In this document: positions 1,916 to 59,036 of the stretch, piece by piece
Numbering within the stretch: the stretch's first letter is position 1
How the letters are laid out: the number at the start of each line of letters is the position of its first letter
From: an uncultured bacterium
GTDB lineage: Bacteria > Patescibacteriota > Minisyncoccia > UBA6257 > 2-01-FULL-56-20
Assembly: GCA_963830935.1 (NCBI GenBank)
Contig: CAWHOC010000005.1
Location: 38,023 to 102,022, forward strand
DNA length: 64,000 nucleotides
Direction of reading: 5' to 3'
The notes under the pieces: generated by a model
Told to the model about the DNA's origin: nothing
Seen by the model: the letters and a program-made list of their open reading frames with translations, nothing else
Database searches by the model: none
Made by a program: the position numbers and the translations under genes

Positions 1916-1951
1916 AACCGGATTATTACACGACCCACATTAAATCATTCT

Positions 1952-2082: not shown

Positions 2083-2114
2083 TAAGATACTGAAGAAGGA
2101 TCCTTTTTCAGCAA

Positions 2115-8562: not shown

Positions 8563-8565
8563 GGT

Positions 8566-9168
8566 TTAATGGTGCTGGGGAGGAAGCGGATGCTCTTTTG
8601 CGTAATCATCGCGAACCATCCAGGATGCGATCTGGAAAATAAGCGTAAGTGATTCATCTTCGTGATTCACCACATAGTCCTTCACTCGATCCATAATTGG
8701 ATCGTTCCGAAATGAACCGATTGCTAGCTCTGCTTCTTTCTCGTAATCGTAGAGTGTTCGCAGACGCAGTGATTCCATGTGTTTGAAAATTCTTTGCCGG
8801 ATTGCCGGATAGATCTCATCAAATCCAGAATCTTTAAGCAACTCCTTTCCTTTCTCGCTTGGGGTAGTCGGACTATTTCTTATCTGATACATCGTGTGCG
8901 ATGAAAGTGTTGTCGCGTGTGCCGCGAGAAGTTCCCCCTGTTCCTTCAAAACACCTCTCATCTCTTTAAACTCTGTCTTCGTCTCGACCTTGAACTCCGT
9001 CATCTCAACAATAAAACTACTCAATCGCTCATCAATGCGTATGATAAGTTCCCGCGTGTTGCCCAAAAGCAACGTGGCAATCCAGTTCCCAACCTTTGTG
9101 AACCTTGATAGATTTTGATCCATGATAAAGATTGTTTTTTTACGACAATCCCACCCTAGCACACTCAC
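8566..9168 (-). CDS. hypothetical protein
   Basis: 200-aa track ORF with no recognisable motif. It contains one copy of the CCGGATTGCCGGAT repeat (...DEIYPAIRQRIF...). Confidence 0.4.
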   Translation of the reverse strand: MSVLGWDCRKKTIFIMDQNLSRFTKVGNWIATLLLGNTRELIIRIDERLSSFIVEMTEFKVETKTEFKEMRGVLKEQGELLAAHATTLSSHTMYQIRNSPTTPSEKGKELLKDSGFDEIYPAIRQRIFKHMESLRLRTLYDYEKEAELAIGSFRNDPIMDRVKDYVVNHEDESLTLIFQIASWMVRDDYAKEHPLPPQHH

Positions 9169-9209
9169 ATTAAAAATATATTAAAAGAACTATGTCGAAA
9201 ATGCGGAGC

Positions 9210-9860
9210 TTAGAGCGTCCAGCGGGCGGATGCGGCAACAATGACGAGCAGCGAGAAGAGCACACTCCCCGTGGCGAGCACTTTCGCGCGCGTGAGTTCA
9301 CCGAACACGTATTGCGGCACGAGATCGATCAGAATGGCGGCAAGGAGGAATATAATCGCCGACTGATAGAGGAAATCGAGGGGGAGGAACAGCCCGACGA
9401 TGATCAACTGCCACATAAGGATGAACGTCATCCAGCCGAGCATACGGCGGAACGGCTGGGGGGCTTCGGAAAAATTCTTTATAAAACTCGCGACCATCGC
9501 GCTGATGGCCACTGCAGCGACCAGGCCGTACAGGAGCGCGCGCAAGCCGAACGATCCGCCGACGGTCAGGAAAAAACTTCTGAGCAGCAGATACGACAAG
9601 AAAAGCATAAGGATTTCATACGCGGAACGCCGGTCGATGATGAGAAGGTCTTTTACAAGGAGAATGAAATAGAAGATGGCGACGAAGATGATCGCGTCCA
9701 GAATCCCCTGGCTCCCCAGTAAGGATATTAAAAGCAGTGCGAAAAAGGGCGTCGCAACTTTGCCGGCGCCCGTGATCGGAATGAAATAGAGGAAAAGCGC
9801 GACGATGAGAAAAAGCCAGAACGGCAACGCCCACCATGCGACACCAAAAATGACGGCCTT
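9210..9860 (-). CDS. polytopic membrane protein, function unknown
   Basis: About 7 hydrophobic helices. The track ORF 9210..9956 overlaps the clpB 3' end, so the true start probably lies downstream of 9956. Confidence 0.45.
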   Translation of the reverse strand, partial: KAVIFGVAWWALPFWLFLIVALFLYFIPITGAGKVATPFFALLLISLLGSQGILDAIIFVAIFYFILLVKDLLIIDRRSAYEILMLFLSYLLLRSFFLTVGGSFGLRALLYGLVAAVAISAMVASFIKNFSEAPQPFRRMLGWMTFILMWQLIIVGLFLPLDFLYQSAIIFLLAAILIDLVPQYVFGELTRAKVLATGSVLFSLLVIVAASARWTL

Positions 9861-13923: not shown

Positions 13924-15167
13924 CTATTTGGATCCCAGTACCCTTTCTACGATTTTCGCCGCGGCGGCGACGCCTCCCTTCGTCGTTCCCTTTCCCAAAC
14001 TGAAGCGAATGCTTGATCCGGCACGTTCTTTTGAATATCCCAGTGCCTCGATCACATACGACGACTCGACGGCGCGGGAGCGGCACGCGGAACCGGAAGA
14101 TGCGGCGAGGCCGGCGCGATCGAAGCGCGTGAGCAGATCCTGCGCGGCGAGGCCGGGAAAATAAATGTTCAAAATATGCGGCGCCTTCGCGTCCCCCGCC
14201 GGGCCATTGATCTCCGCCGCGGGTGCGGCGAGTTTTATGCGGCGCCACAGTTCGTCGCGCAACGCAGCGACACGCGTGGATGTTGTGCCGCGAGCGGCGG
14301 CGGCGAGCTCCGCCGCTTTTGCGAATCCCACGATGCCCGGCACGTTCTCCGTGCCCGAGCGCACGCCGAACTCCTGCCCGCCGCCGCTCACCTGCGCGAC
14401 TCAACGGAAATCCACCACTCTCGGAAAATATTTTTCTCATCGCGGCGAACATATAACGCACCGACTCCTTTCGGCCCGTACATTTTGTGCGCGGAGAGCG
14501 TCATCATATCCACGCCGAGCAATGCGACGTCACAATATAAATAAGGAAATGACTGCGCGGCATCGGTGTGAAGAAGTGGATACGGATCGGGATGTTCCGC
14601 GTTCGCGCCCGGCGCGTTCTTGCGGAATTCGTCGATCATAAATTTGATCTCGCGCAGCGGCTGGATCGTGCCCGTCTCGTTATTCACGTGCATGACGGAT
14701 ACGATGACGGTGTCCGCGTTCAGCGCATCCTTCAGCGCCACGATATCGATAACGCCTTCTTTATTGACCGGCAGCCGCACGACCTCTACGCCATCCTGTT
14801 CCAAAACTTGTGCGGTCTCGAAGATGGATTCGTGCTCAATGGCGGAGATGATGATACGCGATCGTGCGCCCGTAGCGACGCCTTCGCCCGCCGGGTGGTT
14901 TTTTTTGTAGAACTCCACCGCGCCGCGGAGCGCGAGGTTGTTCGCCTCCGTCGCCCCGCTCGTGAAAACGATCTCGCGGAAATGTTTCGCGCCGATCAGC
15001 TTGCCCACGCTTTCGCGCGCGGCGTCCACCGCCGCGATCGCCTTTTGTCCGAACGAATGGAGCGAACCGGGATTCCCGAACTCGCGCGAAAAATACGGAC
15101 GCATTGCGCGAAGGACGCGCGGGTCGACGGGAGTCGACGCCGCATGATCAAAATAAAGTCGGCGCAT
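13924..15167 (-). CDS. cysteine desulfurase (IscS/NifS family), frameshifted near 14390-14410
   Basis: The 14388..15167 ORF has the class-V aminotransferase N-terminus ([33 protein letters not shown]). The 13924..14391 ORF continues [26 protein letters not shown]...SSGSACRS in another frame. Confidence 0.8.
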
Positions 15168-22720: not shown

Positions 22721-23110
22721 CTATTTTACGAATATAGTGTAGGCAAAGTACCCCACCACCCCAAGCGCGACAAGCCCCACAAGCCCGACGATGAGTTTCG
22801 GCAGAAGATCGCTCCCCGGACCTGCGTCCGAGACCTCCTGACCGAGCACCGGCCGGTCAACCGGCTGGTAGGGCTGCGGCGTATTATCCTCCGGCATGAC
22901 GATGCGGCCCGCTTCCGGGATGGGCGTCTGGACGAAGGTCGTCGGTGCCTTGAACTTTTCCTCGAGCGATAGCCCGGTAACGGCGACGTTCTGATACGAC
23001 GGCGCGCCTCCCCCGCTCTTCATCATGGAATTGATGTCGGAGCGCATGGTGCGCACCTTCACCTCCGATGGCGGTGGCGGCGCGGTGGTGATGACGGTTT
23101 TGTCTTCCAT
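22721..23110 (-). CDS. hypothetical tail-anchored membrane protein
   Basis: 129 aa, Pro-rich, with a C-terminal TM segment LIVGLVGLVALGVVGYFAYTIFV. Confidence 0.4.
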   Translation of the reverse strand: MEDKTVITTAPPPPSEVKVRTMRSDINSMMKSGGGAPSYQNVAVTGLSLEEKFKAPTTFVQTPIPEAGRIVMPEDNTPQPYQPVDRPVLGQEVSDAGPGSDLLPKLIVGLVGLVALGVVGYFAYTIFVK

Positions 23111-23274
23111 GTATTTATTTTAACATACAAAAACGAAAGGGCTCTCCATAAAACAATGGCCAAATAACAAAAAACATCCTATTCGAGGGGCATCGCGGAG
23201 GCACGAAGGTGCCGAGCGCTGAGGCGGCCGGTCAGCAGGCCGGAACGCCGTTCCTGAGAATAGGATGTTTTTTG

Positions 23275-25415
23275 TTATTTGGTTTCCAATTGTTTTATGG
23301 AGAGCCCGATCTTGCCGTTCTCCGCTTTGATGATCTTCGCGCGGACGTGGTCGCCGAGATGGACGACGTCCTCCACCTGCTTCACAAAACCCTGCTTGAG
23401 CTCGGAGACGTGGATCATGCCGTCGGCACCGCCGCCGAGGTCGACGATCGCGCCGAATTCCAGGATCTTCACGATCGGGCCTTCCACGATCTCGCCAACT
23501 TTCCATTCTTTCGTCATGCCCAGGATCTCCGCGACGGCCGCCTCCACCTTTGCGAGGTCGACGCCGGAAACGTACACGCCGCCGTCCTCTTCGATGTCGA
23601 TGCCCGCGAGCTCGTACTTGGCGATGAGGCCGTTGATCATCTTTCCGCCGGGCCGATGACGGTGCCAATCTTCAGCGGATCGATCTTGAACTGGCGGATC
23701 TTCGGCACGAATGGCGAGATCGCCGTGCGCGGCGCGGGAAGCGTCGCCACGATCGTCTTCAAGATGTGCAACCGCGCGTCGCGCGCCTGCGCGAACGCCT
23801 TCTCGAGCAACTCGATCGTAAGCCCATCCACTTTGACGTCCATCTGCATGCCGGTCACGCCATCGTTCGTTCCCGCAACCTTGAGGTCCATGTCGCCATG
23901 ATGATCTTCCGGTCCCTGGATGTCGGTCAGCACTTTGTAGTTATTCACGTCCGAGTGCCGTCCGGCGTGGTGCCCATCATGAGTCCCATCGCGATGCCCG
24001 CGGCCGGTTTCTTAAGCGGCACGCCGGCGTCCATGAGCGAGAGCGCGGACGCGCAGACCGTCGCCTGCGAGGACGAACCGTTGGAAGACATGATCTCCGA
24101 AACGACGCGGATCGTGTACGGGAATTCCTCCTTGCTCGGGATCAAACGCTCGAGCGATTTGCGCGCGAGGTTGCCGTGGCCGATCTCGCGGCGCCCGGGG
24201 CCGCGGAACGAGCCGACTTCACCGACCGAGAACGGCGGGAAGTTGTAGTGCAGCATGAAGCGGCGCTTGCCGGTGGTCTCCATCGTCTCGATCATCTGCT
24301 CGGCGCCGGGCGCCGCGAGCGTCGTGATGGCGAGCGCCTGGGTGTTGCCACGGACGAACAAGGCCGAGCCGTGCGTGCGCGAGAACAATCCCACTTCGGC
24401 ATCGAGCGCGCGGACCTCGTCAAGCTTGCGTCCATCCGGGCGCTGCTCTTTTTCCAAAATATTTTTATGGACGAGGTCGTTCACCATCTCGTCGTACAAG
24501 AATTCAACTGCTTTCCAGTTTATCTTTTCCTTTGTGGCGCCAAATTTTTCTTTGATGTGCAGATTGAGCTCATGATTCAGCGCGCCAACGGCGGTCGTGT
24601 GCTCCACTTTCGTCGGCTTATAGATCGCCGCCTCCAGCTTGTCCGCTAGGAACGCGCGGATCTCTGTTTTGATATCCTCGTCCGGCTCCGCGAGCGCAAC
24701 CTCCGCCTTCGGTTTGCCGATCTCGGCGCGGATCTGTTCCTGGAACGCGATCAATTTGTTGATCTCCTGCTGCGCGAGTTTGAAGCCCGCGACGACATCC
24801 TTCTCCTGCGCATCCAAACCGCCAAGCTCGATCATATTGATGCGATCCTTGGAGCCGGAAACGAACGCGTCGAAGATCGGCAGGTTCGGTTCGGCAAGAG
24901 CGCTGTTATCGGGATTCACGATGAACTGCTTGTCTGCCCGTCTATATCTGCGCGACGCGCACGCCGGCGACCGGGCCGTTCCACGGAATGTCGGAGATAA
25001 AGAGCGCGGTCGAAACGCCAAGCAATCCAACGAACTCCGGATCGTTCTGCTCGTCGATCTGCAGCACGGTGACGACCACCTGGATCTCGCGGCGCATCTT
25101 GTCGTTGAAGAGCGGGCGGATGGTGCGGTCCACCAAGCGACCGGCGAGGATCGCCTCTTCGGACGAACGGCCTTCGCGGCGCACGTAGCGGCTGCCCAAA
25201 ATTTTTCCCGCAGCGTAGAACTTCTCTTCGTAATCCACCTTGAGCGGCAAGTAGTCGATATCGCTATCTTTGCGCGCCATCACTGCCGTCGCGAGCACGA
25301 CGGTCTCGCCGTACTTCGCGATCACCGCCGCGTTCGCCTGCTCGGCCAACGCGGAAACCTCTATCGTCAACGTCTTTCCTGCGATCTCAACGGAAAACTG
25401 CTTTTTCTGTAACAT
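23275..25415 (-). CDS. pnp: polynucleotide phosphorylase (PNPase), split into 4 ORFs by about 3 frameshifts
   Basis: Track ORFs 24942..25415 (RNase PH domain 1), 23945..25030 (alpha-helical region and PH domain 2), 23637..23948 (KH domain) and 23275..23640 (S1 domain) are collinear with PNPase. Confidence 0.9.
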
Positions 25416-25560: not shown

Positions 25561-26253
25561 TTAATGATTATCCGACTGCGGCCGCTTCGCCCGTGCCATG
25601 TACCGCGGCTTCATGATCGCGCGCGGAAGCGCCTCTATATTCACGAACTCATCGGCGGCCTCCACAAGCTTTGTTGATGCACTCCTTCGGAACGAGGCGA
25701 TCTCGACCACTCGCCCACCTGCCCATTTTACGTAATTGACCAAGGGAATATAATCGCCGTCGCCGGTCACCAAAATGATCACATCCAGGAATGGCATCAT
25801 ACGGATGACGTCCACCGTGAGGCCCACATCCCAGTCGCCCTTCTTCAATCCGCCGGCGTAGATCTGTAAATCCTTCATGCGCAGCTCAAGGCCGGCTTTC
25901 TCCAGCGCTTCAAAGAAGCTTGCCTCGGAAGACATGCCGCCGTTCGCGCCGTCGCCGTTGCCGTTGCCGTTCGCGCCGTTGCCGGATACTGCCGACGCCG
26001 GCACGATGGACATCGCCGCCGCCTGATCCTTTTCCGCCATGCGCACGTGCCCGCGCGCCTGCTGCGGTTCCACGCCTTCGCTGCGCACCACGTACGCCAT
26101 CGCGCGGATCAGCTGCCGCCCCGCCACAAGATGCTTGATGAGCTCCGCGTAGTTCACCCGGCCCTGGTACAGGTTTTTCGCCGAGTGGTACAGGTTCGAC
26201 ACATCAACAAAAATCCCAACACGCTGGTTGGAATGGTTCGTTCCCGCTGCCAT
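25561..26253 (-). CDS. NYN/LabA-like (DUF88) PIN-fold nuclease domain protein
   Basis: VGIFVDVSNLYHS...IILVTGDGDYIPLV...RVVEIASF, with a low-complexity GNGANGNGNGDGANGG insert. Confidence 0.65.
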   Translation of the reverse strand: MAAGTNHSNQRVGIFVDVSNLYHSAKNLYQGRVNYAELIKHLVAGRQLIRAMAYVVRSEGVEPQQARGHVRMAEKDQAAAMSIVPASAVSGNGANGNGNGDGANGGMSSEASFFEALEKAGLELRMKDLQIYAGGLKKGDWDVGLTVDVIRMMPFLDVIILVTGDGDYIPLVNYVKWAGGRVVEIASFRRSASTKLVEAADEFVNIEALPRAIMKPRYMARAKRPQSDNH

Positions 26254-26519
26254 TATTTTTTAAGATCGAGCTTCTTCAAAAGTTTTTCGTACGAAGAAGG
26301 CTCGTGCTTCTTCATATACGCGAGCAATTTTCTGCGTTTGGATACCATCTTCAAAAGACCGCGGCGGGAATGATTGTCCTTCGGGTTTTTCTTGAGATGG
26401 GTGGCCAGCTCGTCGATCTGGCGCGAGGTCATCGCGATCTGCACCTGGGCGGAGCCGGTGTCTTTCTCGTGCGTCTTATGTTCCCCCACGATGCGGGATT
26501 TTACTCTCTTAGTAAGCAT
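26253..26519 (-). CDS. rpsO: 30S ribosomal protein S15
   Basis: MLTKRVKSRIVGEHKTHEKDTGSAQVQIAMTSRQIDELATHLKKNPKDNHSRRGLLKMVSKRRKLLAYMKKHEPSSYEKLLKKLDL. It is in frame with the upstream ORF, with no stop between them. Confidence 0.85.
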   Translation of the reverse strand: MLTKRVKSRIVGEHKTHEKDTGSAQVQIAMTSRQIDELATHLKKNPKDNHSRRGLLKMVSKRRKLLAYMKKHEPSSYEKLLKKLDLKK

Positions 26520-26522
26520 TAT

Positions 26523-28574
26523 AAGTGATGATACATCATTATCTAATAACTTAGCAAGGGGCACGGCCACTTTTCTATAGAGATAAAGGAAGAGAAATAT
26601 GCCGCCGCCGATGATGGAGGCGGTGATCGGCTGGATGATATCGGGCATGAGCATGAGGATGGCACAGGCGATCACGAATATCCCCGGCGAAAAAACGAGG
26701 AGGAGGAGTGGCAATACCCAAAGGACATACCACGGCATGAACCATGATGTCCCAAAAAAGAACAAAAACAGGAATGGGATGGAAAAACTTTCCGGAAGTT
26801 TTTTCTTCCGCGCGAAGATGACGAGGGAAATATAAAAAATGAGAACGCCGATCACACGCAAGATCAGTTCATTCCCCGAAAGCTTGTGAAGGAGGTCCGT
26901 GCCCAGGAGGGCGAATATGGGATCAAAGATATCGAGGGTCTGGTGAAAAAATCCGCCAAGGCCGACGACGGGACCGCCGAACGGAAGGTAGAATATCGCA
27001 AAGCCCGCGAGGAGCAGTGCCCCCGCGACGAGCGCGCGCCGGACCACCGCGCGAACCGGAAGGAGACCTCCGGAAAAAGTCATGAACACCGGGATCGGGA
27101 TAAGGAGCCATGGCACATACTTGAAAAATCCTCCGATCACGAGCGCGAGGATGCTCGCCCAGCCCTCATCGTTCAAAAAGAAATAGAATGCCAAAACGAT
27201 GGACGCGAGAATGAACACGTCCGCGTGGAGATCGATAAAAATTTCCTGGAACAGGAACGGATTCCATAGGATGAGCATAAAATAGTGCGGCCGGTTTTCG
27301 GCAGGGATGTTCATCCGGGCAAGTATCTTCCAAAATATCACGAGGGCGAAGCACGCCACGGCAAAGAAAAGTATCTTGAGCGCGACGATCGCCGCGAGCG
27401 GCGTTCCGAGGAGTGATGGCAGGAAAAGAGAAAAGACCCACAACGGGCCCTGGGCCATGACGAGGGTCGTCCACTGAGAGACCGGAGCGCTCCAGATGTC
27501 CATCGGGAGCATCGCGGGAGTGGTCGTATAGGGATTGAGATGGAAAAGCGAAAAGCCGCGCGTGAGGAGCAGATTCCAATACACGTCCTGTGACCGGTCG
27601 GGAAGCATGAGGAGGGTGATCAGGAAATACAGCGCGAAGAAAACGATAATGATGGTCATCGCGGTGCGCCATCGGGGACCGTTCGCATATCGCGAGGCTT
27701 TGAAAAGCACAAAAAAATAAAGAGTCAGCGCGAGCACCACCGCAAGGACGCCCCATGGAAGCTGTCCCGTCAGCATATCGTACCCCTGCCCGTAGGCCGC
27801 GATCACGTTGGCCGCGAACAAGATCGCGAGAATGCTCCCCGCGGCGATCAACGCATTCATATGATGGGAAGCCATCCTCCCAAAAAATCGCAAGCCGTGC
27901 ACGATCTCGAGCGGAGGGTTGGCAACTTTGCTTTTCCTTCCGGGAAATCTGGTTTCAATCCAGGAGACAGGGACTTCCGTTATGCGCAGGCCGTTTTCCG
28001 TTCCGCGGATGATCACCTCCGAGTTCAAAAACCATCCGTTCTCGGTGCATGATGCCATGATCTCCGCCGCGCGGGCATTTGCGGCGAAGACCCCGCATTG
28101 AGCATCGGACAGGGTCACGCCGAAGAGCGCTTTCATAAAGAACGCCCAGCCCCGGGTCATGATCTTTCGGTACCACGTGCGAAAGCCGGTGCGTTTTCCA
28201 AAAACAAGATCCGCGGTCTTGTTTTCAAGCGGAGCGGAAAGTCTCTGATGATCCTCCAGCTCCACCGGCAGGTCGGCATCGACAAATAGATAGTAAGAAG
28301 CGGGGTAGGATGCTACCGGCTTGGCGAAAAGCCGCGCCGCGGCCCGCTGCGGGAAGATGAAGATAATGGACATGCCGATTCCGGGCGGCGATCTCCTTCC
28401 TATATCGCCCGTGCCATCGTGCGAACCGTTATCCGCGATGAGAATTGCCCAGGAGGCGTCCTTATCCTGCCACCGAGAGGTCAGGAACGATGAAAGCTCA
28501 TGGATCGATCTTTCGAGTACGGGCGCCTCGTTATGAACAGGCACGATGATCAGGTGTGAGATCTTTTGATCCAT
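26523..28574 (-). CDS. GT2-family glycosyltransferase fused to a large polytopic membrane domain; 3' boundary undefined (no stop codon before rpsO)
   Basis: The N-terminus LIIVPVHNEAPVLERSIHEL...ILIADNGSHDGTGDI is GT-A/GT2 (DPM1-like). It is followed by about 12 TM helices. The track ORF 26253..28574 reads straight into S15. Confidence 0.65.
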
Positions 28575-31091: not shown

Positions 31092-31172
31092 TGCCCGGGA
31101 GAGGACTCGAACCTCCACGCCTTGCGGCATCAGCTCCTAAAGCTGACGTGTATGCCATTTCACCACCCGGGC
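31092..31172 (-). tRNA. tRNA-Leu (anticodon TAG), type II with long variable arm
   Basis: Reverse complement reads GCCCGGG-TG-GTGAAATGGCATACAC-G-TCAGC-TTTAGGA-GCTGA-TGCCGCAAGGCGTGG-AGG-TTCGAGT-CCTCT-CCCGGGC-A. CCA is not encoded. Confidence 0.8.
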
Positions 31173-31333: not shown

Positions 31334-32638
31334 ATGGACACAGCATTATGGATCATTCTCTTGATGTTCCTGGTCGCGGGTGCCATAAGCATTCCCGTGA
31401 TCGCGGCATTCGCGTTGACTTACAAGATGTGGACGCCCGCACTGGCGAAACGCAAATTGTTCGTCGCCACACCACAGGAAGGTACCGGGATGTGGATCTT
31501 GAAAAATGGCAGAGCGTGGAGATTTATCACCACCGATGCGAAAAAAGATCCGGATCCGCTTCACTGCGATGTCACTGAAAAAGGCATGGCAAAGTGGCCT
31601 AACCCTCAGGGAAAACTTAGAAACTCTGACGGGGGCTGTGAACCATGGTGGGTTCAGTGGCTCGATAGTATCCTGCCCGGCGGCATGCGTTGGATAGGAG
31701 TACCGTGGATATACACCATCTACGAATACAACTTTCGATGGAGCGTGCTCCGACAGAGCAAGCCATCCATCGAAGATGGGCTCATTGATTCGTACCAGTT
31801 AGAGAGCGGGAAATGGGTAGCATGCTTTGCAAAAAAGCTTGACTACGTGTTCCTCCGCAACTCTGTCTACTACCTGCGTGCCAGCAATTCGGAAACACAG
31901 GGAGCGGACAATGACGCGGCGGACAAGTCCGTCGGCATGGCAATTGGGATGGATCTTGTGCCCACGGTAAGAGTCATAAATCCCTACACTTCCCACTTCG
32001 TCATACACGACTGGCTGGAAAGCTCTCTTGATTTGGTTGGTCCCGCGCTTCGAAGCTGGATCGCAAACAATCCTTATCAGGTGATCAACCGGAAGCCCGA
32101 ATCAGCGCAGCGGCAGTTTGATGAATTTTTACAAACCGCCCTGGCAAAAGAAAATGATCGATGTATCCTCGACGTCTTGGAAGACGATTATGGCGTCAGG
32201 TTTGAGAGCGTCGGGATCGACAACATCATTCCACCCACTGAATATGCCGAGGCCACCACACGGCGTGCCGCGGCAGTACAGGATGCAGTTCGGATCGAGA
32301 CGCTTGCGCTTGCGAATTCCAATCAGTTGGCCATTCTTGCAAGAGGCCAGGGAGAGGCAGTGAGAACGCTTGCGGATGCTGATGGTTACCGCATCACCAC
32401 GGTCAATGCAGCCATCGACGAGGCGCCAGGAGGGAACGCATTTGCCCTCGAAGCGCTCGCGACGCTTAAGGATATTGGCGAGAACGGCAACACCGTTGTA
32501 TTAGGTGGAACTAATCCTGTCAATATGTTGATCAACGCTTCCAAAAATCCACAAACTCCCCCGCCTCCACCGACGGCTCAACCGCCGCGGAATCGAGGGG
32601 GTAACCAATCGCCCAGACAAGCAGGAGGTGGGCAATGA
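31334..32638 (+). CDS. SPFH/band-7 (stomatin/prohibitin-like) domain membrane protein
   Basis: N-terminal TM, and a C-terminal region GVRFESVGIDNIIPPTEYAEATTRRAAAVQDAVRIETLALANSNQLAILARGQGEAVRTL typical of the SPFH C-terminus. Confidence 0.5.
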   Translation: MDTALWIILLMFLVAGAISIPVIAAFALTYKMWTPALAKRKLFVATPQEGTGMWILKNGRAWRFITTDAKKDPDPLHCDVTEKGMAKWPNPQGKLRNSDGGCEPWWVQWLDSILPGGMRWIGVPWIYTIYEYNFRWSVLRQSKPSIEDGLIDSYQLESGKWVACFAKKLDYVFLRNSVYYLRASNSETQGADNDAADKSVGMAIGMDLVPTVRVINPYTSHFVIHDWLESSLDLVGPALRSWIANNPYQVINRKPESAQRQFDEFLQTALAKENDRCILDVLEDDYGVRFESVGIDNIIPPTEYAEATTRRAAAVQDAVRIETLALANSNQLAILARGQGEAVRTLADADGYRITTVNAAIDEAPGGNAFALEALATLKDIGENGNTVVLGGTNPVNMLINASKNPQTPPPPPTAQPPRNRGGNQSPRQAGGGQ

Positions 32639-33450
32639 AGGCTTGGAAATTCTACTTGTGGGTGATCGGTGGTGGGAGCGCAGTATTCGCCCTCATCATC
32701 CTCGCCGCAATCAGCATCGTCCATCACCTCAATGGCAATGGCAGCTGGGCTGGGCTCGGAACATTCATATTGCTCGGCATTGTGATGTTCTTCGTGGGAC
32801 TTGTGGTGCTCGTTTTTCTGAGCACACGCAATTTCCTGCGAAAGGAAAAGTCAAAGCCGCAAGCCATCGCCGTAACAGCAACAACAACCCCATCCACGCC
32901 CCCTCCACCGGCACCAACCCCAAAAAAGAAGCATGGGGTCGGGTATTGGATCAAGGCGACGCTCGTATGGGCCATCCTCATCGGAGCGATCAGTGTGGTG
33001 GGGTTCGCGCTGAAGCAGTGCATTTTTACATCCGGCCCTATCTCCAATGGGCCGATCAACTGGTCGTGGCCGGGTCAGACCCTCGCGCCGCCGGACATCG
33101 GCCTCAACTGTCCTGGCGTGGAGGATTTAGACAAAAACCACGCCGAGGATCACAGCCGAGACGATATGGACCAACCAGTCTATATCAAAACGGTTCCGGC
33201 TCCGGGATCGGAGAAGGCGCTCTGTTGGTCAGCTCGGGTGACCCTACCGCCCTACCAGGCGGAATGGCACCCAAAATTCCTCGACCCCAACCAGGTCAAG
33301 GGCGGATGCCTTGCGTACGTGCAGTACCAAGGTATCTCCCGGATCTACGGCCCCTACAGAGGCACCGTAGATATCGGCGAAAGTAACATGCCACACAACG
33401 ACTGGTTCCGTGTGGCAACCAATTGTTCGATTTACGTGTACGGGAATTAG
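32635..33450 (+). CDS. membrane protein with extracytoplasmic Cys-containing domain, operonic with the SPFH gene (4-nt overlap)
   Basis: Two N-terminal TM helices, a Pro/Thr linker, and a C-terminal domain. ATGA start/stop overlap with the upstream gene. Confidence 0.4.
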   Translation: MKAWKFYLWVIGGGSAVFALIILAAISIVHHLNGNGSWAGLGTFILLGIVMFFVGLVVLVFLSTRNFLRKEKSKPQAIAVTATTTPSTPPPPAPTPKKKHGVGYWIKATLVWAILIGAISVVGFALKQCIFTSGPISNGPINWSWPGQTLAPPDIGLNCPGVEDLDKNHAEDHSRDDMDQPVYIKTVPAPGSEKALCWSARVTLPPYQAEWHPKFLDPNQVKGGCLAYVQYQGISRIYGPYRGTVDIGESNMPHNDWFRVATNCSIYVYGN

Positions 33451-33585: not shown

Positions 33586-33978
33586 TTAGCAGGAGCTGAC
33601 GCCTTGTGCGCCGAGGAAGCTTCCCACGACGAGCGGAACCGCGCGGGCCAAGAGGGCCACGCCGATGGCGATCGCCGCGTAGAGCAACGTTGCTCCGGCG
33701 CTCTTTACCTTCTCCGGATCACCGGCTGCAGTGAGATACTTGAATGCCGCGACGATGACGAAGATGACGGCGATCACAATGAGGAAGTAGAACGCCCACG
33801 CGAAAACCGTGCAGAGCGTCTGAAGAACTCCCTGTAAGCTCGTGATCTGACCCTGCGGAACGCCTACGTTCGTCGGCGCGTTCGGGAGGGGGAGATTCTG
33901 CGCGAACGCCATCGCCGGCAAAACCAAGGCCGCGATCGCGGGGGTGAACTCCTTCGCTAAACTAATTACTTTCTTCAT
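33586..33978 (-). CDS. small secreted pilin-like protein (VirB2/TrbC-like), paralog 1
   Basis: Signal peptide MKKVISLAKEFTPAIAALVLPAMAFAQ, followed by a C-terminal two-helix hairpin ...IVAAFKYLTAAGDPEKVKSAGATLLYAAIAIGVALLA. Confidence 0.4.
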   Translation of the reverse strand: MKKVISLAKEFTPAIAALVLPAMAFAQNLPLPNAPTNVGVPQGQITSLQGVLQTLCTVFAWAFYFLIVIAVIFVIVAAFKYLTAAGDPEKVKSAGATLLYAAIAIGVALLARAVPLVVGSFLGAQGVSSC

Positions 33979-34069
33979 AATCAATGAATTTTGAGGATTT
34001 TCGACCTTTCTGATGTACCTAAAAATGCTACCATACCGCTCTTTTGCCCGCAATATTGCTAGATGAGGC

Positions 34070-34465
34070 CTACCCGAGGCATCCGATGGTGAATCCGCCC
34101 GTGCCGTTGCCAAATAACGATGCGACGATAGAGGGAACTCCGGCAGCGAGCAATGCCACCAGTATTCCGATCGCGGCGTACGTTATCGTCTTCCGGCCCG
34201 TGGCAACTTTCTCAGCATCATCGCCCGCGGTGGCGTACTCGAACGCCGCGTATACGATCATGATGACCGAAACGATGATCACCACCCAAATGAACCAGTC
34301 GATGATATTGCACAAGAGCTGTTGGATATCCGCGGCGGAGTTCACCGGAGACGTGATATTCCCAACTGAATTTACGGTAGCCAGGGCGACCGAAACAGAC
34401 AGACCAAGCGAGGCCGACACCAGTGCCATTGATGGCACGACAAGAAACTTCTTAATCGAGTTCAT
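34070..34465 (-). CDS. small secreted pilin-like protein, paralog 2
   Basis: Signal peptide, followed by ...IVYAAFEYATAGDDAEKVATGRKTITYAAIGILVALLAAG. Confidence 0.4.
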   Translation of the reverse strand: MNSIKKFLVVPSMALVSASLGLSVSVALATVNSVGNITSPVNSAADIQQLLCNIIDWFIWVVIIVSVIMIVYAAFEYATAGDDAEKVATGRKTITYAAIGILVALLAAGVPSIVASLFGNGTGGFTIGCLG

Positions 34466-34551
34466 GGTGAAGTTTTATTTTAGTTCGACCATTTATTCTC
34501 TTTAATATCCCATATTGTATCCTAAAACGCCAGCAGGATGGAATGCTGGCG

Positions 34552-34916
34552 TCAGCTGTTGCCAAATAAGCTCTTTATGATCGAGGTGACCCCGGTGGCG
34601 ATGATGGCGATCACAAAACCGATCGCGGCGTACAAGATGGTCTTCCTCCCCTGCGAAAATTTCTCCGGATCGCCGGCGGACGTCGTTATCTGAAAGGCGC
34701 CGACGAGTACCATGATCGCGGTAAGCGGGATCGCGATGGTGGTGGAGATGAAAAAGATAACGTTATTCGCCACGGAGGCGAAGGTCTCGCCGCCGCCGAG
34801 CGGGTCGTTGAGCGCGATCGTCGCGTTGCTCAACGCCAGCGCGGACGCCGCGCCCGTCGGACGAAGATCACCACACTCGCCCATCCCGCGTTCAGCTTTT
34901 TTGCGATCTTCATCAT
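34552..34916 (-). CDS. small secreted pilin-like protein, paralog 3 (frameshift within the signal peptide)
   Basis: MMKIAKKLNAGWASVVIF is in one frame. ...AASALALSNATIA...VGAFQITTSAGDPEKFSQGRKTILYAAIGFVIAII is in the track ORF frame. Confidence 0.35.
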
Positions 34917-34937
34917 TATTTTCATTATAGCAGGTTA

Positions 34938-35479
34938 TCACTGCGCCACGGGCAACGTGGATGAGCAGAAGCTCAGCCCGAACGAATCTCCGTAGTACGA
35001 GCTGTTCTTGTCGGTAACTCCTTCGTCGACATTCAGTTTGCACGCGTCGCTTTCCGAAACGCCCAGCTGGCTCATGAATGCCGCTTCAGCGGCGGCGCGG
35101 ACGTCCTGGAGCGAACTCGTCACTACGGTAAGATCGATGATGAAGCTGCTGCCGGCGCGGACATAGTCGTCGCTATAGTCGCTAGTCTCCGCAAGCACGA
35201 CGTTCTCGTTGTCCGCCGTGATGTAATCCATCGTCTTGTAGAAGTTGTTTACCGTGACGGTCCCCTGATTCGTCCCTATCTGGAACGTGCTTCCCGTAGG
35301 GAAAGAGCTCGTGCCGTTCTGAACGGTACTCGATGTCGACGTTGCCGCCGGTGGAAGATTTCCTGGGGTATTCGTGGGAATCGTGCTCGGAGCCGCGCCG
35401 CGCAAGATAAAATATACGATACGCCGATCACAATGGCAATGACTACCAGCACGATGAGAATGATGATCCCTTTTTTCAT
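34938..35479 (-). CDS. secreted Thr/Ser-rich protein with N-terminal anchor, frameshifted
   Basis: MKKGIIILIVLVVIAIVIGVSYIL (35276..35479 ORF) continues in another frame as ...TIPTNTPGNLPPAATSTSSTVQNGTSS... (34938..35405). Confidence 0.35.
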
Positions 35480-35519
35480 AATGTTTCTTCTATGTATATA
35501 TTTATTATATCTCTATACT

Positions 35520-36470
35520 TCAAAATCCGCATTTTTTCCCATCCGCTTTCCACGGACCGAGGTTCGATCCACCATTGGATAACGTACACGCGACAAGGAT
35601 ATTATTCGCGCCTTGCTGGGCGGCAGCTACGCAATCATTATAGAGTTCAAGCATGATCTCGCTTCCACATTGGCCGTTGGATATCTGACATGCGACACCG
35701 TTGCCTTTGGATGCTGTCGTACATGGCCGACTTGCATCGGGACAGGAAATCGCTTGGCCGGTGAACGCGGCGCCACAATTCTGGCCATCCACGGTCTGCT
35801 TCCATGAATTCGTAAGGTTGATCTGGAAAAGCCCCACCGAGACCGGATAGAGGCCCGTGCCGTTCGGCCCAAGACAATTGTCGCTGCCGCTTTTTAAGCC
35901 CGCGTTGCCCTGGCTCTCATTCTTGCATATCCCCGACCATAACGCCGTATTGTTGGAAAAACAGGTGTTCGCCAGATTCGCGGTGGTGCATAGCGATCCG
36001 GGGCTGGTAACTGGGGGGCAGGAGTTGGGCTGCGGCGAGGGGCCGTTGTTGGGCGCATTACTGGGCGGTGGATTGGTGGCTGCCGAGATCGCGTTCAGCG
36101 TGGGTAGGTTGAGATTGAGCAATTGGGGATTGATCACTTCTAATATCAAGTATGCCCCAGCAAGAAGGAGTAGTCCGATAAGCGCTCCCCAGATCCATTC
36201 CTTCCCATCGCTTTGCGCGGAAGGATTCCCTGCGGAAGCGACATATTTGACTCCTCCGAACACAATGGCGCCGAACGCAAGGATCCCTCCTATCAATAAT
36301 GCAAACTGATAGAAGTTGGCGATATACGCGCCGGGGGCCGTGGAAGTGTTGTTGGCATAGCTCCCCGGAATTCCGACGGAGATCTGCGTCTGGGCAAAAG
36401 CGAGCGCCGGGAGGGCGAGTATCGCGAGAAGCCCGAGCGCCGCTGAAAATTTTACGAGGTTGTTACGCAT
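35520..36470 (-). CDS. pilin-like N-terminal module fused to a Cys-rich C-terminal domain with a lytic-transglycosylase (SLT)-like motif
   Basis: Signal peptide, then YQFALLIGGILAFGAIVFGGVKYVASAGNPSAQSDGKEWIWGALIGLLLLAG (same two-helix motif as the paralogs), a P/N/S linker, then ...CKNESQGNAGL...GLYPVSVGLFQINLTNSW (ES...GLxQ is SLT-like), with many Cys. Confidence 0.45.
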   Translation of the reverse strand: MRNNLVKFSAALGLLAILALPALAFAQTQISVGIPGSYANNTSTAPGAYIANFYQFALLIGGILAFGAIVFGGVKYVASAGNPSAQSDGKEWIWGALIGLLLLAGAYLILEVINPQLLNLNLPTLNAISAATNPPPSNAPNNGPSPQPNSCPPVTSPGSLCTTANLANTCFSNNTALWSGICKNESQGNAGLKSGSDNCLGPNGTGLYPVSVGLFQINLTNSWKQTVDGQNCGAAFTGQAISCPDASRPCTTASKGNGVACQISNGQCGSEIMLELYNDCVAAAQQGANNILVACTLSNGGSNLGPWKADGKKCGF

Positions 36471-36940
36471 GCGTTATTGCCAAACCCACCGATGCCGGTT
36501 ATGCCGAGGACGGTGATCGTCGTATTTACAATGAGATACGCGCAGAGCACGATGGCAAGGCCGATGACGGTGGCGGTAAGCGTCTTCTTCCCGGACTCGA
36601 GCATGCCGGGATTCGCCCCCGCGAGCATGACCATCACCGCTCCCACCACGATCATCACCGGTGCGAGAATAAATATGGCGAGCGACATGCCGAAGTAGAT
36701 GATGTTGATCGCCGTATCAATAAGGTCGCACAGGCTGGTGCAAGGAGGGGCCGCCGGCGAGTTATCGGGATTGGTGGACGGCGCGCCGACGTAAATGCCC
36801 GTGCATGAAACGAGCGGGCCCCAAAAACCGGGCGGCGTTCCCCAAAGATTCGGTGTCGTCCACGCCGACGCGACGAGCGGAAGCGTGAGCGAAGATCCGA
36901 CGATCATGATGAGCAATATTTTTGCGGCGGTGGTGTTCAT
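36452..36940 (-). CDS. small secreted pilin-like protein, paralog 5
   Basis: Signal peptide, followed by ...IIYFGMSLAIFILAPVMIVVGAVMVMLAGANPGMLESGKKTLTATVIGLAIVLCAYLIV. Confidence 0.4.
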   Translation of the reverse strand: MNTTAAKILLIMIVGSSLTLPLVASAWTTPNLWGTPPGFWGPLVSCTGIYVGAPSTNPDNSPAAPPCTSLCDLIDTAINIIYFGMSLAIFILAPVMIVVGAVMVMLAGANPGMLESGKKTLTATVIGLAIVLCAYLIVNTTITVLGITGIGGFGNNACVTTS

Positions 36941-36949: not shown

Positions 36950-38268
36950 TTAGTTTCCCGCCGAGTTCATCGCGGCCTGCGCCTGGGTGAGCGCCGTCGT
37001 GGAATCGGCCGCGCCGTTCAGGACGTTCTCTATCGCGGTGTTCATAATACTGTCGTATTGCTCGCTCACGTTCTCGTGCCACGACTTCGCGGTGAGCGCC
37101 TGCGAGGCGAAGACCGCCGTCGTGGGACTCCCGAGGTCCGCCGCGATCACCGACCGCAGCGCCGGCGGCGCGCCCGTGTCCTTCTGGTATATGTTCTCAT
37201 CCGCGGGGGACGTCGTCAAACTGATGATGAAGTTCCAGGCGCCGGCAAGGTTCGTAGTGTCCCGCGAGACCGCAAGGCCGTTATACTTCGCGTAGTTAAC
37301 GGCCACCCCCGCGTTCGCCGGCTGCGGCATCGCCGCGACGCCATAATTGAGGAACGGCGCCGTCGCCTTTATCTCCGCGATCGCCGAAGAGTAATCAAAG
37401 ATGACCGCGGTCTTTCCCTGCGTGAAGCTCGCGAGCGCCGTTCCCATCCCGTCATTCCAGGTATAGTTCGAATTGGCGGCGTTCGAAAATTGCAGATAAT
37501 AATTGAATGCGTTGAGACCGGAGGTGTCGTTGCCGTTCCCGGCGGCGAAGGTCGCGGTGGACCCGCCGGGATACGTCATCTGCGTGCCGTTCTGCATCAT
37601 AAGGAGAAAGATGATGTCGGGCGCGTTCGGGATGCTGGTCTCCGAACCGCCGAGCGCGAGCGCTGCCTGCGTGATCTGGCCCTGCGCGTTCGTCACGCGG
37701 AGCGCCGGGAATGTCGGCCTGGAGCGCTTCCCACGTGCTGGGTATCGTCGCGATGTTCGCGCTATTGAACATGTCCTTGTTATAGATCATCGCGAGCGTG
37801 TCGATGGAAAGCGGCAACGCATAAATAGTAGCCGTTGGACACAAAGTCCTGCGAGACAATATCCGGGAAATCATTCTGCAATGTGACCTGATTGAACGTC
37901 GTCGCGAGCGCGGCGGGGATCGGTATGGCGACGCTCGTCCATTGCGAGAGATCCCGGTTCGGGATCTCGAAAATGTCCGGGCCGGTGCCGGCGGCAAGCG
38001 CCGCGAGCAACTTGGTCCGATATTGGCTTGGATCGATCTCCGTGTATCTGATCTGCGCCTGCGTTCCCGAGCCGGGGCCGGAATACGCCTGGATCATATC
38101 GTTGAATGCTTTGGAGCTGTCCGTGCCCCAAATAGTAAGCGAAACAGCAGAACCGCTTCCGCCGCCTCCCGTGCGGATGCTCAAAAAGAACACCACCGCG
38201 CCAACGATCACCAAAAGTACGGCGGCCCCGATGATGATGATCTGCTTTTGAGTAAAATGTGTTGGCAT
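36950..38268 (-). CDS. ABC transporter extracellular solute-binding protein (family 1), with 2 frameshifts
   Basis: The 37780..38268 ORF has an N-terminal TM, then LTIWGTDSSKAFNDMIQAYSG...IRYTEIDPSQYRTKLLAALAAGTGPDIFEI. It continues in ORFs 37452..37997 and 36950..37696 (MIYNKDMF...IPSTWEAL...). Confidence 0.7.
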
Positions 38269-38295: not shown

Positions 38296-38378
38296 TGACC
38301 GTATGCGCATATCCTTTTTTATGCGCTCACCGTCCTCGTGTGGCATTCGCGCATAAAAAGGATATGCGCATACGGTCA
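38296..38378. repeat. long-stem hairpin, copy A of the conserved-loop family; overlaps the gyrA stop codon
   Basis: tgaccgtatgcgcatatccttttttatgcgc - TCACCGTCCTCGTGTGGCATT - cgcgcataaaaaggatatgcgcatacggtca: a stem of about 31 bp with one bulge, and a 21-nt loop identical to that of copy B. Confidence 0.55.
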
Positions 38379-40814
38379 GATCACCACTGTTCCTGCTACG
38401 CGATCGCCGCTCTTAAGATCCATGATGTGCACGCCTTGCGCGGAACGCCCCGTCTTCCGCACCGTCGAGATCTCCGTGCGGATCATCTGGCCTTTCGCCG
38501 AAAGCGCGAATATCTCCTTCTCTTCCGACACAACGTGCGCGGAAACGACCGGGCCCGTCTTCGGCGTCACCTCGGCGGTCTTGATCCCCGACCCGCCGCG
38601 GCTCTGTACTTTGTATTCCTTGAGCGACGTCTGCTTCGCGAAGCCGTGCTCCATGACGACGAGCAGCATTGCCGCATCTCCTCTTATTATATCAAAGCCG
38701 GCAACCTCGTCGTTCTGTTTTTTCAATTTGATCGCGCGAACACCCGCTGCGGTGCGGCCCATCGGGCGCACCTGCTTCTCATCAAAGCGGATGGACTGGC
38801 CCTGCCGCGTGGCGAGCACCACCTGCTCCGCGCCCGTGGTGAGCTTGGCCCACTTGAGGTGATCGCCCTTTTTGAGCGAGAGCGCGATGATGCCGGTGCG
38901 GCGGATGTTCTCAAAATCCTCTAGTGGCGTTTTTTTGATGACGCCCTGCTTGGTGACCATCATGAGATATTTCCGCCCGGTTTTTCCTTCGGCCTTCGCC
39001 CCCTTCGCGGAATAGCTGACGATCGCGCTCACGTTCTCGTCGGCGGGGAGCTCCAAAAAGTTCTGGATGGCTCTGCCTTTGGAGGTACGCGTCGCCTGCG
39101 GGATCTCGTAGACCTTCGTCTGGAACACGCGCCCGCGGTCGGTAAAGAAGAGCACGTTGTCGTGCGTGTTCGCACTGAAGAAGTGCGAGAGGAAATCCTC
39201 ATCGGCCACTTCGGAACCGATCAGCCCCTTGCCGCCACGCCGCTGCACCTTGAACGTGCCCGGCGGCAGGCGCTTGATGTATCCCCCGCCGGAAACGGTG
39301 ACGATCGCCTCCTCTTCCGGAATCAAATCCTCGTCGCTCATCGCCTCCACCGCGCGGCCGACCACCTTCGTGCGCCGCTCGTCGCCATACTTGTCCTTGA
39401 GCTCCGTCACTTCGTCCTTGACGATCTTCAGCACCCGCGCGGTGCTCTTTAATATCGCCTTGAGCTCGTCAATGAGCGCGTGCTTTTCCTTGAGTTCCGT
39501 CTCAATCTTCAACCGCTCGAGCGCGGCGAGCGTCTGCAGGCGCATTTCCAAAATTGCCGTCGCCTGGAGATCGCTCAACTTGAAGTTCTTCATCAGGTTC
39601 GCGTGCGCGACCTCTTTGTCTTCGGACTTGCGGATCGTCGCGATCACCCTATCGATCGCGTCGAGCGCGATCATGAGCCCTTCCAAAATATGCGCGCGTT
39701 CCTCTGCTTTGCGAAGGTCGAACTTCGTGCGGCGCGTGATGATCGTCTTCCGGTGCTCAAGATATTCCGCCAGAATATCCTTCAGCGTGAGCAGGCGCGG
39801 CTCGATGCCGTTCACAAGCGCGATCATGTTGAAGTTGAAGTTCTTTTCGAGGTCGGTGTGCTTGTAGAGCCAGTTTAACACTTTCTGCGGAGCGACGTCG
39901 TTCTTGAGCTCGATCACAATGCGCATGCCGTCGCGGTCGGACTCGTCGCGCAGGTCGCGGATGCCCTCGATCTTTTTGTCCTGCGCGAGCTCCGCGATCG
40001 TGCTGATGAGCTCGGACTTGTTCACCTGGTACGGGATCTCGGTGACGATGATGTCGAACTGGCGGCTATTCTTCTTCTCCACGATCTCCGCCTTCGCGCG
40101 CGTGATGATGCCGCCGCGTCCGGAGACGTACGCTTCTTTGATCGCCTTATTGTCGTAAATGATCCCGCCGGTCGGGAAATCCGGCCCTTTGACGAACTGC
40201 AAAAGGTCCTCGCTCGTGGCGTCGCCGTTATCGGCAAGATAAAGGATGGCGTCGGCGATCTCGCCCAGATTGTGCGGGGGAATGCTCGTCGCCATACCGA
40301 CGGCAATGCCGAGCGCACCGTTCAGTAAAAGGTTCGGCAGCTTCGCGGGAAGCACGGTCGGCTCGTTGCGCGTGCCGTCGTAGTTCGGGATCCAATCCAC
40401 CGTTTCCTTCTCAATGTCCGAGAGCATCTCGTTCGCGATCGCGGCGAGCTTGGCTTCGGTATAACGCATGGCGGCCGGCGGGTCACCGTCCACCGAACCA
40501 AAGTTCCCCTGCCCGCGCACGAGCGGATAGCGCAAGGAAAAGTTCTGCGCCATGCGGACCATCGTGTCATATATAGAGGAGTCGCCGTGCGGATGATACT
40601 TCGCCATCGTTTCGCCGACCACATACGCGGATTTGCGAAACTTGGCGGTGGAAAGCACGCCCATGTCCCACATCGCCCACAACACGCGGCGGTGCACCGG
40701 CTTCATGCCGTCACGAACGTCGGGCAGGGCGCGCGCGACGATCACCGACATCGCGTAGCTAAGATACGAATCGCCCAGCTCTTTGGTAATTTCCTGTGGT
40801 TCCATGTCTGCCAT
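38376..40814 (-). CDS. gyrA: DNA gyrase subunit A
   Basis: 812 aa, with the active-site region ...AAMRYTE... and C-terminal beta-pinwheel repeats. Confidence 0.95.
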
Positions 40815-48337: not shown

Positions 48338-48413
48338 GCAAGAAAACAAAAACAGGCATATTCGCCGAACGGTCCATCTTCGGGAGGCGAATATGCTGTT
48401 TTTGTTTTCTTGC
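48338..48413. repeat. 27-bp-stem hairpin immediately 3' of the tmRNA gene
   Basis: gcaagaaaacaaaaacaggcatattcgcc - 20-nt loop - ggcgaatatgctgtttttgttttcttgc. Located between the tmRNA 3' end and the att-like repeat, near a 25-bp perfect palindrome cgggaggggcag-c-ctgcccctcccg at about 48274-48298. Confidence 0.5.
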
Positions 48414-48415
48414 TG

Positions 48416-48732
48416 TGGAAGCGGGCGGAATCGAACCGCCGTGTAAAGATAATGCCGATGGGCCGTCTACGAGTGTAGTTTAGCTAGGCTAAGCGAAGTG
48501 ATCATATTTTCGCGCCGGGCGTATGATCGTCAACCTGGCGCTAGTCCCCTTATATAAGACCGGTATCAGTCCAAGGAACCCGGACCGGCCGATCCCGAAG
48601 GGCTAGGCGTAAGCCAGAGCGAACTTCGGAGCTGCAACTTTGGAGTTGGCAGTTATAGGTTGTGCAACAATAACGACGTTGCCAACGACTCGCAAACCCA
48701 TGGATTATCTTTATCGAAGCCAATGCGCTCCC
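48416..48732 (-). ncRNA. ssrA: tmRNA (ssrA)
   Basis: Minus-strand 5' end GGGAGCG-CATTG-GCTTCGAT (tmRNA consensus GGGGnnGnnnnGGnUUCGAC...). The 3' end GGCGG-TTCGATT-CCGCC-CGCTTCC-A is a T-arm with an acceptor that pairs with the 5' end. About 317 nt. Candidate tag ORF ...GCC AAC TCC AAA GTT GCA GCT CCG AAG TTC GCT CTG GCT TAC GCC TAG (ANSKVAAPKFALAYA*). Confidence 0.75.
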
Positions 48733-56115: not shown

Positions 56116-56193
56116 AAACAGAAGCGATGTCTTTTTATACGCTCACCGTCCTCGTGTGGCATTTGCGTATAAAAAGGACATCGCTTCTGTTTC
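56116..56193. repeat. long-stem hairpin, copy B of the conserved-loop family; overlaps the stop codon of the Clp ATPase gene
   Basis: gaaacagaagcgatgtctttttatacgc - TCACCGTCCTCGTGTGGCATT(t) - gcgtataaaaaggacatcgcttctgtttc. It has the same loop as copy A and an unrelated stem. Confidence 0.55.
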
Positions 56194-58708: not shown

Positions 58709-59036
58709 AGAAAAGGATGACGGCGGGAATGGCAATCCATATGATGTAGATGAAGGCGAACACGATCGCAATCAAGAGATAAAATATGCCGCCGATCGCC
58801 ACACGCCCCGCCCGGAACACGATTCCGAGGATCCTGCCGATCACGCTGTAATCCTTATAGAGCGGCTCGAAGAAATGCCGCAGGGTGATGGCGACCGCGA
58901 ACGATTGGTCCGCGGCGGTGATCGCTCCCATAAAACGCCGCGCGATCATGCGCGACCCGTCAACATACCAATGATGAAAAAAGTCCACAAAGCGGTAGAA
59001 AAACCGCCGGGCAAGATAGACGACCGAAAAATCCAT
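58689..59036 (-). CDS. small membrane protein
   Basis: 115-aa track ORF with two C-terminal TM helices. Confidence 0.4.
   Translation of the reverse strand: MDFSVVYLARRFFYRFVDFFHHWYVDGSRMIARRFMGAITAADQSFAVAITLRHFFEPLYKDYSVIGRILGIVFRAGRVAIGGIFYLLIAIVFAFIYIIWIAIPAVILFYAAKHL

Follow-up and report, generated by a model that had tools for sequence, protein, structure and literature searches.

In a 64,000-nucleotide stretch of contig CAWHOC010000005.1 (hereafter the window), from an ultra-small, Paceibacteria-type bacterium of the candidate phyla radiation (CPR), we identified an array of five non-redundant genes of the T4SS_pilin (VirB2-like) family, whose products each combine a Sec signal peptide with a two-helix membrane hairpin. 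One of the five is a chimera in which the pilin module is followed by a C-terminal, disulfide-rich, lysozyme-like domain of the SLT_3 type that keeps the Glu-Ser catalytic motif. The array is probably a satellite operon of a patescibacterial type IV secretion system (T4SS) whose VirB4/PrgI core is encoded elsewhere. It belongs to one tightly packed string of minus-strand genes (33.5-38.3 kb of the window) which, in the order of transcription, consists of a solute-binding protein (SBP) gene, the pilin gene U2, the chimera U1, the gene of a Thr/Ser-rich protein (X), and the pilin genes D1, D2 and D3.

Five genes of the T4SS_pilin family

All five genes exceeded the gathering score of PF18895 (T4SS_pilin; 26.6 bits), with scores of 30.7-41.5 bits (E = 1 × 10−10 to 3 × 10−7). 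A preliminary description of the window had taken them for five VirB2/TrbC-like pilin paralogs; the Pfam hidden Markov model (HMM) search upholds this at the level of PF18895, whereas the TrbC/VirB2 family PF04956 was matched below its gathering score of 27.9 bits by D2 (18.8 bits) and D1 (12.5 bits) and not matched by the other three, and membership in that family was rejected. In NCBIfam, four of the five genes were matched best by NF045849, the 'pilin-like conjugal transfer protein' of mycoplasma integrative and conjugative elements (ICEs), with E = 5 × 10−9 to 3 × 10−3 and 17-36 bits, under the 40-bit cutoff. Among the 691 six-frame open reading frames (ORFs) of the window, an HMM built from the five pilins found no copy besides those five.

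The first gene of the array, U2 (36452-36940; 162 aa; PF18895 33.1 bits), has a Cys-containing N-terminal extension before the hairpin and overlaps by 19 nt with U1 (35520-36470; 316 aa; PF18895 32.8 bits, PF18896 17.6 bits). D1 (34552-34925; 30.7 bits) is contained in an ORF of 34552-35043, with the true start at 34925; the gene is frameshifted, its signal peptide (MKIMMKIAKKLNAGWASVVIF) being out of frame with the rest. D2 occupies 34070-34465 (131 aa; 41.5 bits), and D3, at the last position, 33586-33978 (130 aa; 34.6 bits), the latter within an ORF of 33586-34113 in which the probable ATG is at 33978. In D3, the signal peptide MKKVISLAKEFTPAIAALVLPAMAFAQ is followed by the two-helix hairpin with the loop AAGDPEK.

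A signal peptide, a two-helix hydrophobic hairpin and a short polar loop were found both in the alignment of the five proteins and in the AF2 model of U1. The loop motif A(A/T)(A/S)GD(P/D)(E/A)K...YAAIG, which had been described as common to all five, is exact in D1, D2 and D3 and is replaced by the variants AGNPS...GKEW and AGANPG...GKKT in U1 and U2. The identity among the window paralogs is 19-57% over partial lengths (19-34% to the first sequence). Published arrays of such genes in Patescibacteria are delimited as 2-11 PF18895 genes of low identity with at most one non-pilin gene between them (PMC12102498), and the five genes together with X form an array in this sense.

The chimera and its lysozyme-like domain

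The U1 protein consists of a signal peptide (residues 1-27), the two hairpin helices (46-78 and 83-113), a disordered Pro/Asn linker (127-146) and a Cys-rich domain (148-316), with the lysozyme-like (SLT_3) region and its conserved residues encoded at 35523-36029. The AF2 model of the full-length protein, with a predicted local distance difference test (pLDDT) value of 78.2, has a signal helix (2-24), a helical hairpin, a disordered linker and a compact domain; modelled alone, the C-terminal domain reached a pLDDT of 88.8 and a predicted template modelling score (pTM) of 0.85.

A search with U1 yielded 240 homologues, all from CPR/Patescibacteria metagenomes (Paceibacterota, Minisyncoccia, Parcubacteria), many of which had already been annotated with PF18895 and PF18896. 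Across 32 full-length homologues, residues E185, S186, D197, S211, G213, L214, Q216, N218 and Y277 are invariant, as are eight Cys. The fusion to an SLT-like domain, which had been proposed from the signature ES...GLFQ, is borne out by this alignment, in which the Glu-Ser pair with the candidate catalytic Glu185 (codon at 35916-35918) is kept throughout. When 28 orthologous C-terminal domains were scanned singly, all 28 matched PF18896 (SLT_3) at E <= 1 (best E = 9 × 10−10), and seven of the 28 weakly matched PF01464 (SLT; best E = 0.0056). The third SLT motif, AYNxG, did not occur in the alignment of the 32 homologues.

In lysozymes and lytic transglycosylases, the first long helix ends with the catalytic Glu. 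In the model of the U1 domain, E185-S186 is at the C-terminal end of the helix that spans domain residues 25-39, and G213-L214-x-Q216 is invariant; going by this model, the domain is predicted to adopt a lysozyme fold. An Asp that follows the Glu at a distance of 12 residues is also invariant, which would allow either a transglycosylase or a hydrolytic muramidase.

Conserved gene order and the probable link to the T4SS core

We compared the window with 35 further gyrA-linked arrays (type-A loci) from species-representative genomes. The order gyrA, SBP, pilin, pilin fusion, X and then three to five pilins is kept in these 35 other loci, and was seen in the same orientation on contigs of 0.1-0.9 Mb; this recurrent position beside gyrA indicates a core chromosomal locus rather than an island. 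The gyrA gene itself (38376-40814, minus strand; 80-97% identity to relatives), assigned by synteny, is an upstream landmark outside the system. Between it and the array lies the SBP gene (36950-38268; assigned to SBP_bac_1 by Pfam and synteny, and split by frameshifts), the end of which is 9 nt upstream of U2. The SBP gene is found immediately upstream of the array in those type-A loci whose contigs extend that far, and its membrane-anchored product is an orphan, with no permease or ATPase genes nearby; it is conceivable that this putative SBP binds wall-derived sugars.

The type-A loci have no T4SS ATPase within 10 kb, and 19 assemblies with a type-A array also hold a separate PrgI-VirB4-pilin locus. 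In one of these (L057, positions 16-11661), on the 914-kb contig CAVOJZ010000002.1, the cluster is about 51 kb from the array and encodes two large unknown proteins, PrgI (VirB3-like, PF12666), a VirB4-type ATPase (PF19044, PF12846 and PF11130; P-loop_TraG/AAA_10/TraC_F_IV), two further unknown proteins, a T4SS_pilin of 141 aa and a protein of 418 aa. Among the paralogs, the chimera's pilin module is closest to the pilin beside virB4. In distant lineages the two loci are merged, with PrgI, VirB4, pilin-SLT, X, in some cases a pilin, and the 418-aa protein in one cluster (L070, L077, L079), and at L069, L073 and L076 (in metagenome-assembled genomes of which some are labelled Saccharibacteria and one Doudnabacteria) virB4 is followed by an SLT_3 domain within a larger protein and then by X. 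The SLT genes after virB4 in these lineages match the essential lysozyme/peptidase genes published for that location in S. epibionticum, as far as those are summarised in PMC12102498 (citing PMC10633639). The separate PrgI-VirB4-pilin cluster of relatives and the merged loci of distant lineages together lead us to read the array as a satellite operon. A surface-filament or pilin subunit repertoire, a partial T4SS and a novel family of secreted membrane-active peptides had been offered as interpretations of the five genes; the first of these, with the T4SS core elsewhere, fits the relatives best.

Five conserved proteins without a Pfam match (796, 427, 230, 273/234 and 418 aa) surround PrgI, VirB4 and the pilin in L057 and about 20 similar loci of Paceibacteria-type genomes, and the first gene product of the core cluster of this type has a PKD domain.

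Family, fold, motifs and synteny are the part of the mechanism that is shown; for the rest, we infer that the hairpins would sit in the membrane after Sec export with both termini outside, which would place the lysozyme-like domain outside the cell. The VirB4/PrgI machinery from the other locus would extract the small pilins and assemble a pilus or conduit, in which the chimera, either as a membrane-tethered protein or as a minor pilus subunit, may serve as a VirB1-like muralytic component that cuts the peptidoglycan of its own cell or, more likely, that of a host cell. The five positions would then have distinct structural roles, as major and minor subunits, and would not be interchangeable variants.

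Several observations weigh against the interpretation of the array as a T4SS satellite operon with a muralytic subunit. As the preliminary description had noted for VirB4 and VirD4, no T4SS core gene (VirB4, PrgI or other) is found in the 64-kb window, and we infer VirB4 and the T4SS core of the window's organism from its relatives only. The window's own SLT domain reached 17.6-18.1 bits with PF18896, for which the cutoff is 27 bits. A Foldseek comparison of the SLT-domain model with the PDB returned nothing significant (E >= 3.7), the list of non-significant matches being dominated by lysozymes, and a profile search of PDB sequences with the same domain gave no meaningful match. The genes for SBP, X and D1 are each frame-broken in the window, and none of the patescibacterial T4SSs has been seen to form a pilus (PMC12857230).

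The array might alternatively have nothing to do with a T4SS or a pilus, in which case the hairpin proteins would be anchors or scaffolds of an envelope module that remodels the cell's own wall or harvests wall sugars and consists of X, an SBP that binds sugars and a muralytic enzyme held by a tether. Such a module would account for the location of the array away from virB4 yet invariably beside an orphan SBP_bac_1 gene, and an extracellular domain that is always at position 2 would suit a membrane anchor; the hairpin fold, moreover, is unspecific. However, the virB4-adjacent pilin is the one that the chimera's pilin module resembles most, a pilin-SLT gene and X are found within the virB4 operon in other lineages, and all five genes belong to a family that was defined on T4SS pilins, so that we regard a T4SS-independent envelope module as unlikely.

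Exchangeable heads of the chimera and the partner protein X

Several species with 90-97% GyrA identity have a C-terminal domain other than SLT_3 at position 2. One such head is VanY-like (E = 6 × 10−4, sub-threshold; SVYRP...HxAGIGID...DPVHF), another CHAP-like (E = 1.3 × 10−3, sub-threshold; CAWAVN...GHVGIC), and further heads include several Cys-rich domains that have H...D...H-type motifs but no Pfam match. Position-2 genes with heads other than SLT_3 are found in the loci L012, L017, L024, L025, L027, L028, L030, L033, L034, L038, L039, L046, L056 and L059 and in P0018, P0033, P0045, P0056 and P0058. The generalization that all heads are peptidoglycan hydrolases could not be established, because the VanY and CHAP matches are sub-threshold and the other Cys-rich heads have no Pfam match.

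Protein X had been described as a Thr/Ser-rich protein that flanks the array; its gene (34938-35479, frameshifted) instead lies inside, between D1 and the chimera U1. The alignment of 29 orthologues shows a membrane helix at the N-terminus, then a Ser/Thr/Pro linker, and finally a domain of about 110 aa with two invariant Cys and the conserved motifs AE...L(G)IS..DACKL...GLSFC. Pfam and a profile search of PDB sequences gave spurious matches only (for example, a botulinum neurotoxin binding domain, E = 0.006), and none of 106 database homologues is named or has a Pfam domain. This conserved, bitopic, family-less partner is present in the window, at L001:10920-11432 and in 47 other loci, and its gene always comes after that of the pilin-hydrolase, whether the locus is a gyrA-linked array or a virB4 operon. 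A VirB8/PrgL-like role of X was considered but is not favoured, as its sequence seems to form several strands followed by a single helix, a pattern that does not appear NTF2-like. X is homologous whatever the type of head that precedes it, which makes a specific inhibitor or immunity protein unlikely.

The pilin-anchored, lysozyme-like enzyme with a swapped head is a candidate for the wall-breaching step and possibly a determinant of host range. We found no paper that describes the pilin-hydrolase chimera, its swapped C-terminal domains or its partner X, and none that mentions PF18896; pilin-hydrolase fusions are not mentioned in the 2025 study of patescibacterial arrays (PMC12102498). One might go further and see in the chimera a new class of secretion component, a VirB2-like module that displays an exchangeable peptidoglycan-degrading head and is built, together with X, into the T4SS pilus or channel, where it would breach the wall of the host bacterium, with head swapping that tracks host wall chemistry and helps to set host range; as a whole, this extended proposal is tentative, and we would give it a modest chance at best.

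Evolutionary pattern of the five positions

For each of the five window proteins, we located the best match within each of the 35 loci. In all 35 loci, the best matches of D1 and of U1 were at the position that these genes have in the window; this was so for U2 in 31 of 35 loci and for D2 in 22 of 35, the remaining D2 matches being at later positions. The best matches of D3 were at D3 in 22 loci, at D4 in 11 and at D5 in two, that is, at the last or a late position, with 58-83% identity. The median identity between genomes (45-62%) is above the identity of paralogs within a genome. In the same comparisons, the pilins (35-83%) and the SLT domain (35-55%) are less similar than the adjacent GyrA (80-97%). 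Paralog number, for which a comparison across related genomes had been suggested, is nearly fixed, with 5-7 array genes per locus.

Taken together, the position-specific matches, the low identity relative to GyrA and the swapped heads point to an old, non-redundant, fast-evolving set with an exchangeable head. This pattern fits extracellular, probably host-facing proteins with distinct roles and is evidence against the recent amplification of an 'antigenic variation' repertoire. Five subunits in a fixed set, matched best at or near the same positions, suggest roles as major and minor subunits and not a repertoire that varies.

Antigenic or host-range variation has been suggested for the VirB2 paralogs of Bartonella and Anaplasma, and the five window genes could likewise be interchangeable variants of a major pilin. 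Low paralog identity and fast evolution relative to gyrA would both be expected of such a repertoire, and this is the reading offered for Patescibacteria in PMC12102498. It is opposed by the position-specific best matches in the 35 loci, with proteins closer between genomes than paralogs are within genomes, by the different architectures of the positions (the N-terminal Cys extension of U2, the enzyme fusion of U1), and by the nearly fixed gene number, when recent variation would give lineage-specific duplications. We consider interchangeable variants decidedly improbable.

Frameshifts and integrity of the window

The frame-broken genes were compared with a short contig of the Joint Genome Institute (L083) that is 97.8% identical to the window and in which all genes are intact, with 316 aa for the chimera, 179 aa for X, and 162 and 123 aa for two pilins. 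Relative to that contig, the SBP gene has single-base insertions at 37827 and 37711, X has a 2-base insertion at about 35423-35427, D1 has a 2-base insertion at 34860-34861, and two indels within U1 compensate each other. Further split genes in the window are those of PNPase (23100-25400), a cysteine desulfurase (13924-15167, in two Aminotran_5 fragments) and a large secreted protein (4-7.4 kb). The intact L083 genes and the other split genes of the window make assembly or sequencing error likelier than decay, and we conclude that the frameshifts are likely errors of this kind. Four frame-breaking insertions in 3.4 kb, against a 97.8% identical contig with intact genes, could still mean that the locus is decaying in this strain and that SBP, X and D1 are true pseudogenes; but the splitting extends to housekeeping genes elsewhere in the window, which points to assembly or sequencing error, and the disrupted genes are otherwise still well conserved, and we hold decay to be very improbable.

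An idea that the frameshifts occur at GATC sites was dropped, as two of them coincide with such sites and those of the SBP gene do not clearly do so. GATC occurs 583 times in the whole window, compared to about 245 expected from base composition. A 773-aa ORF at 26253-28574 joins an N-terminal glycosyltransferase-2 domain to ribosomal protein S15 at the C-terminus (residues 692-771); in relatives, S15 has a gene of its own (88 aa), and the joint ORF is probably an artefact of ORF calling or a further indel.

The five proteins are small and hydrophobic, carry signal peptides and are encoded in tandem, which would suit secreted peptides that act on membranes, for instance toxins of a bacteriocin- or holin-like kind. 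But the locus lacks immunity and ABC-exporter genes and is a core chromosomal feature beside gyrA in dozens of species, and its genes are homologous to the virB4-adjacent pilin. There is thus no support for this last suggestion of the preliminary description, which is scarcely plausible.

Neighbouring genes and other features

Convergent on the end of the array, the plus strand at 31334-33450 encodes an SPFH/Band-7 protein (434 aa) and a membrane protein of 271 aa; in related loci, unknown genes on the opposite strand also come after the array (for example, L001 12818-15606). A scan for promoters and terminators gave a signal no higher than expected from shuffled sequence. Outside the array, Rfam matches above the gathering threshold comprise one tmRNA (48413-48732) and three tRNAs (714-785, 31092-31172 and 62451-62522), all on the minus strand. 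The window of this reduced genome also contains two ClpB/ClpC-type AAA+ chaperone genes (9859-12510 and 56192-58771), the second of which has a divergent N-terminal half.

Comparison with known systems

Pilin arrays in Patescibacteria are already published, and the locus is largely an ordinary example of them. Arrays of 2-11 VirB2-like genes, found with PF18895, have been reported from 383 Patescibacteria assemblies (Quinonero-Coronel 2025, PMC12102498), with the highest abundance in Microgenomatia and Saccharimonadia and with the pilin gene located apart from virB4 in about 40% of those in which both are present; two assemblies related to the window are absent from the supplements of that study. 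In the saccharibacterium Southlakia epibionticum, a pilin array was shown to be essential (Wang 2023, PMC10633639), and so, as summarised in PMC12102498, are the lysozyme/peptidase genes immediately after virB4. A 2025 review counts these systems among monoderm T4SSs and sees in them a 'potential to elaborate conjugative pili' (PMC12857230), and another review calls the role of the essential patescibacterial T4SS 'completely unknown' (PMC11665869), a gap that the chimera may partly answer. The parts of the locus that are worth following are the exchangeable pilin-anchored hydrolase and protein X.

The array resembles the published ones in its PF18895 membership, its tandem genes with one non-pilin between them, its paralog identity of about 25%, its patescibacterial host and the VirB4/PrgI system, of the Gram-positive (MPF-FATA-like) type, with which it is probably associated. 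Unlike them, it is an operon of its own, situated outside the T4SS cluster and behind gyrA and an orphan SBP gene, and has one member fused to a lysozyme-like domain; and whereas the published arrays were interpreted as variable repertoires (PMC12102498), the position-specific best matches argue against that interpretation here. Compared to the TrbC/VirB2 pilins of PF04956 (F TraA, T-pilus VirB2 and archaeal Ced/Ted), the window proteins score sub-threshold and come from a monoderm organism. They share with the Mbov_0395-family proteins of mycoplasma ICEs (NF045849) an origin in wall-less or monoderm lineages with MPF-FATA-type systems, but their scores are under the NF045849 cutoff and the locus has no ICE context. 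Compared to VirB1-type hydrolases of T4SSs (VirB1 of Agrobacterium; the membrane-anchored PrgK, TraG of pIP501 and TcpG of Gram-positive systems) and to EtgA of the type III secretion system, the chimera has as its anchor a VirB2-like hairpin in place of a single N-terminal helix. The enzymatic domain also differs from VirB1-type hydrolases in being a divergent, Cys-rich SLT_3 domain, of which seven of 28 orthologues touch PF01464 weakly, and the invariant Asp 12 residues after its Glu resembles that of hydrolytic c-type lysozymes.

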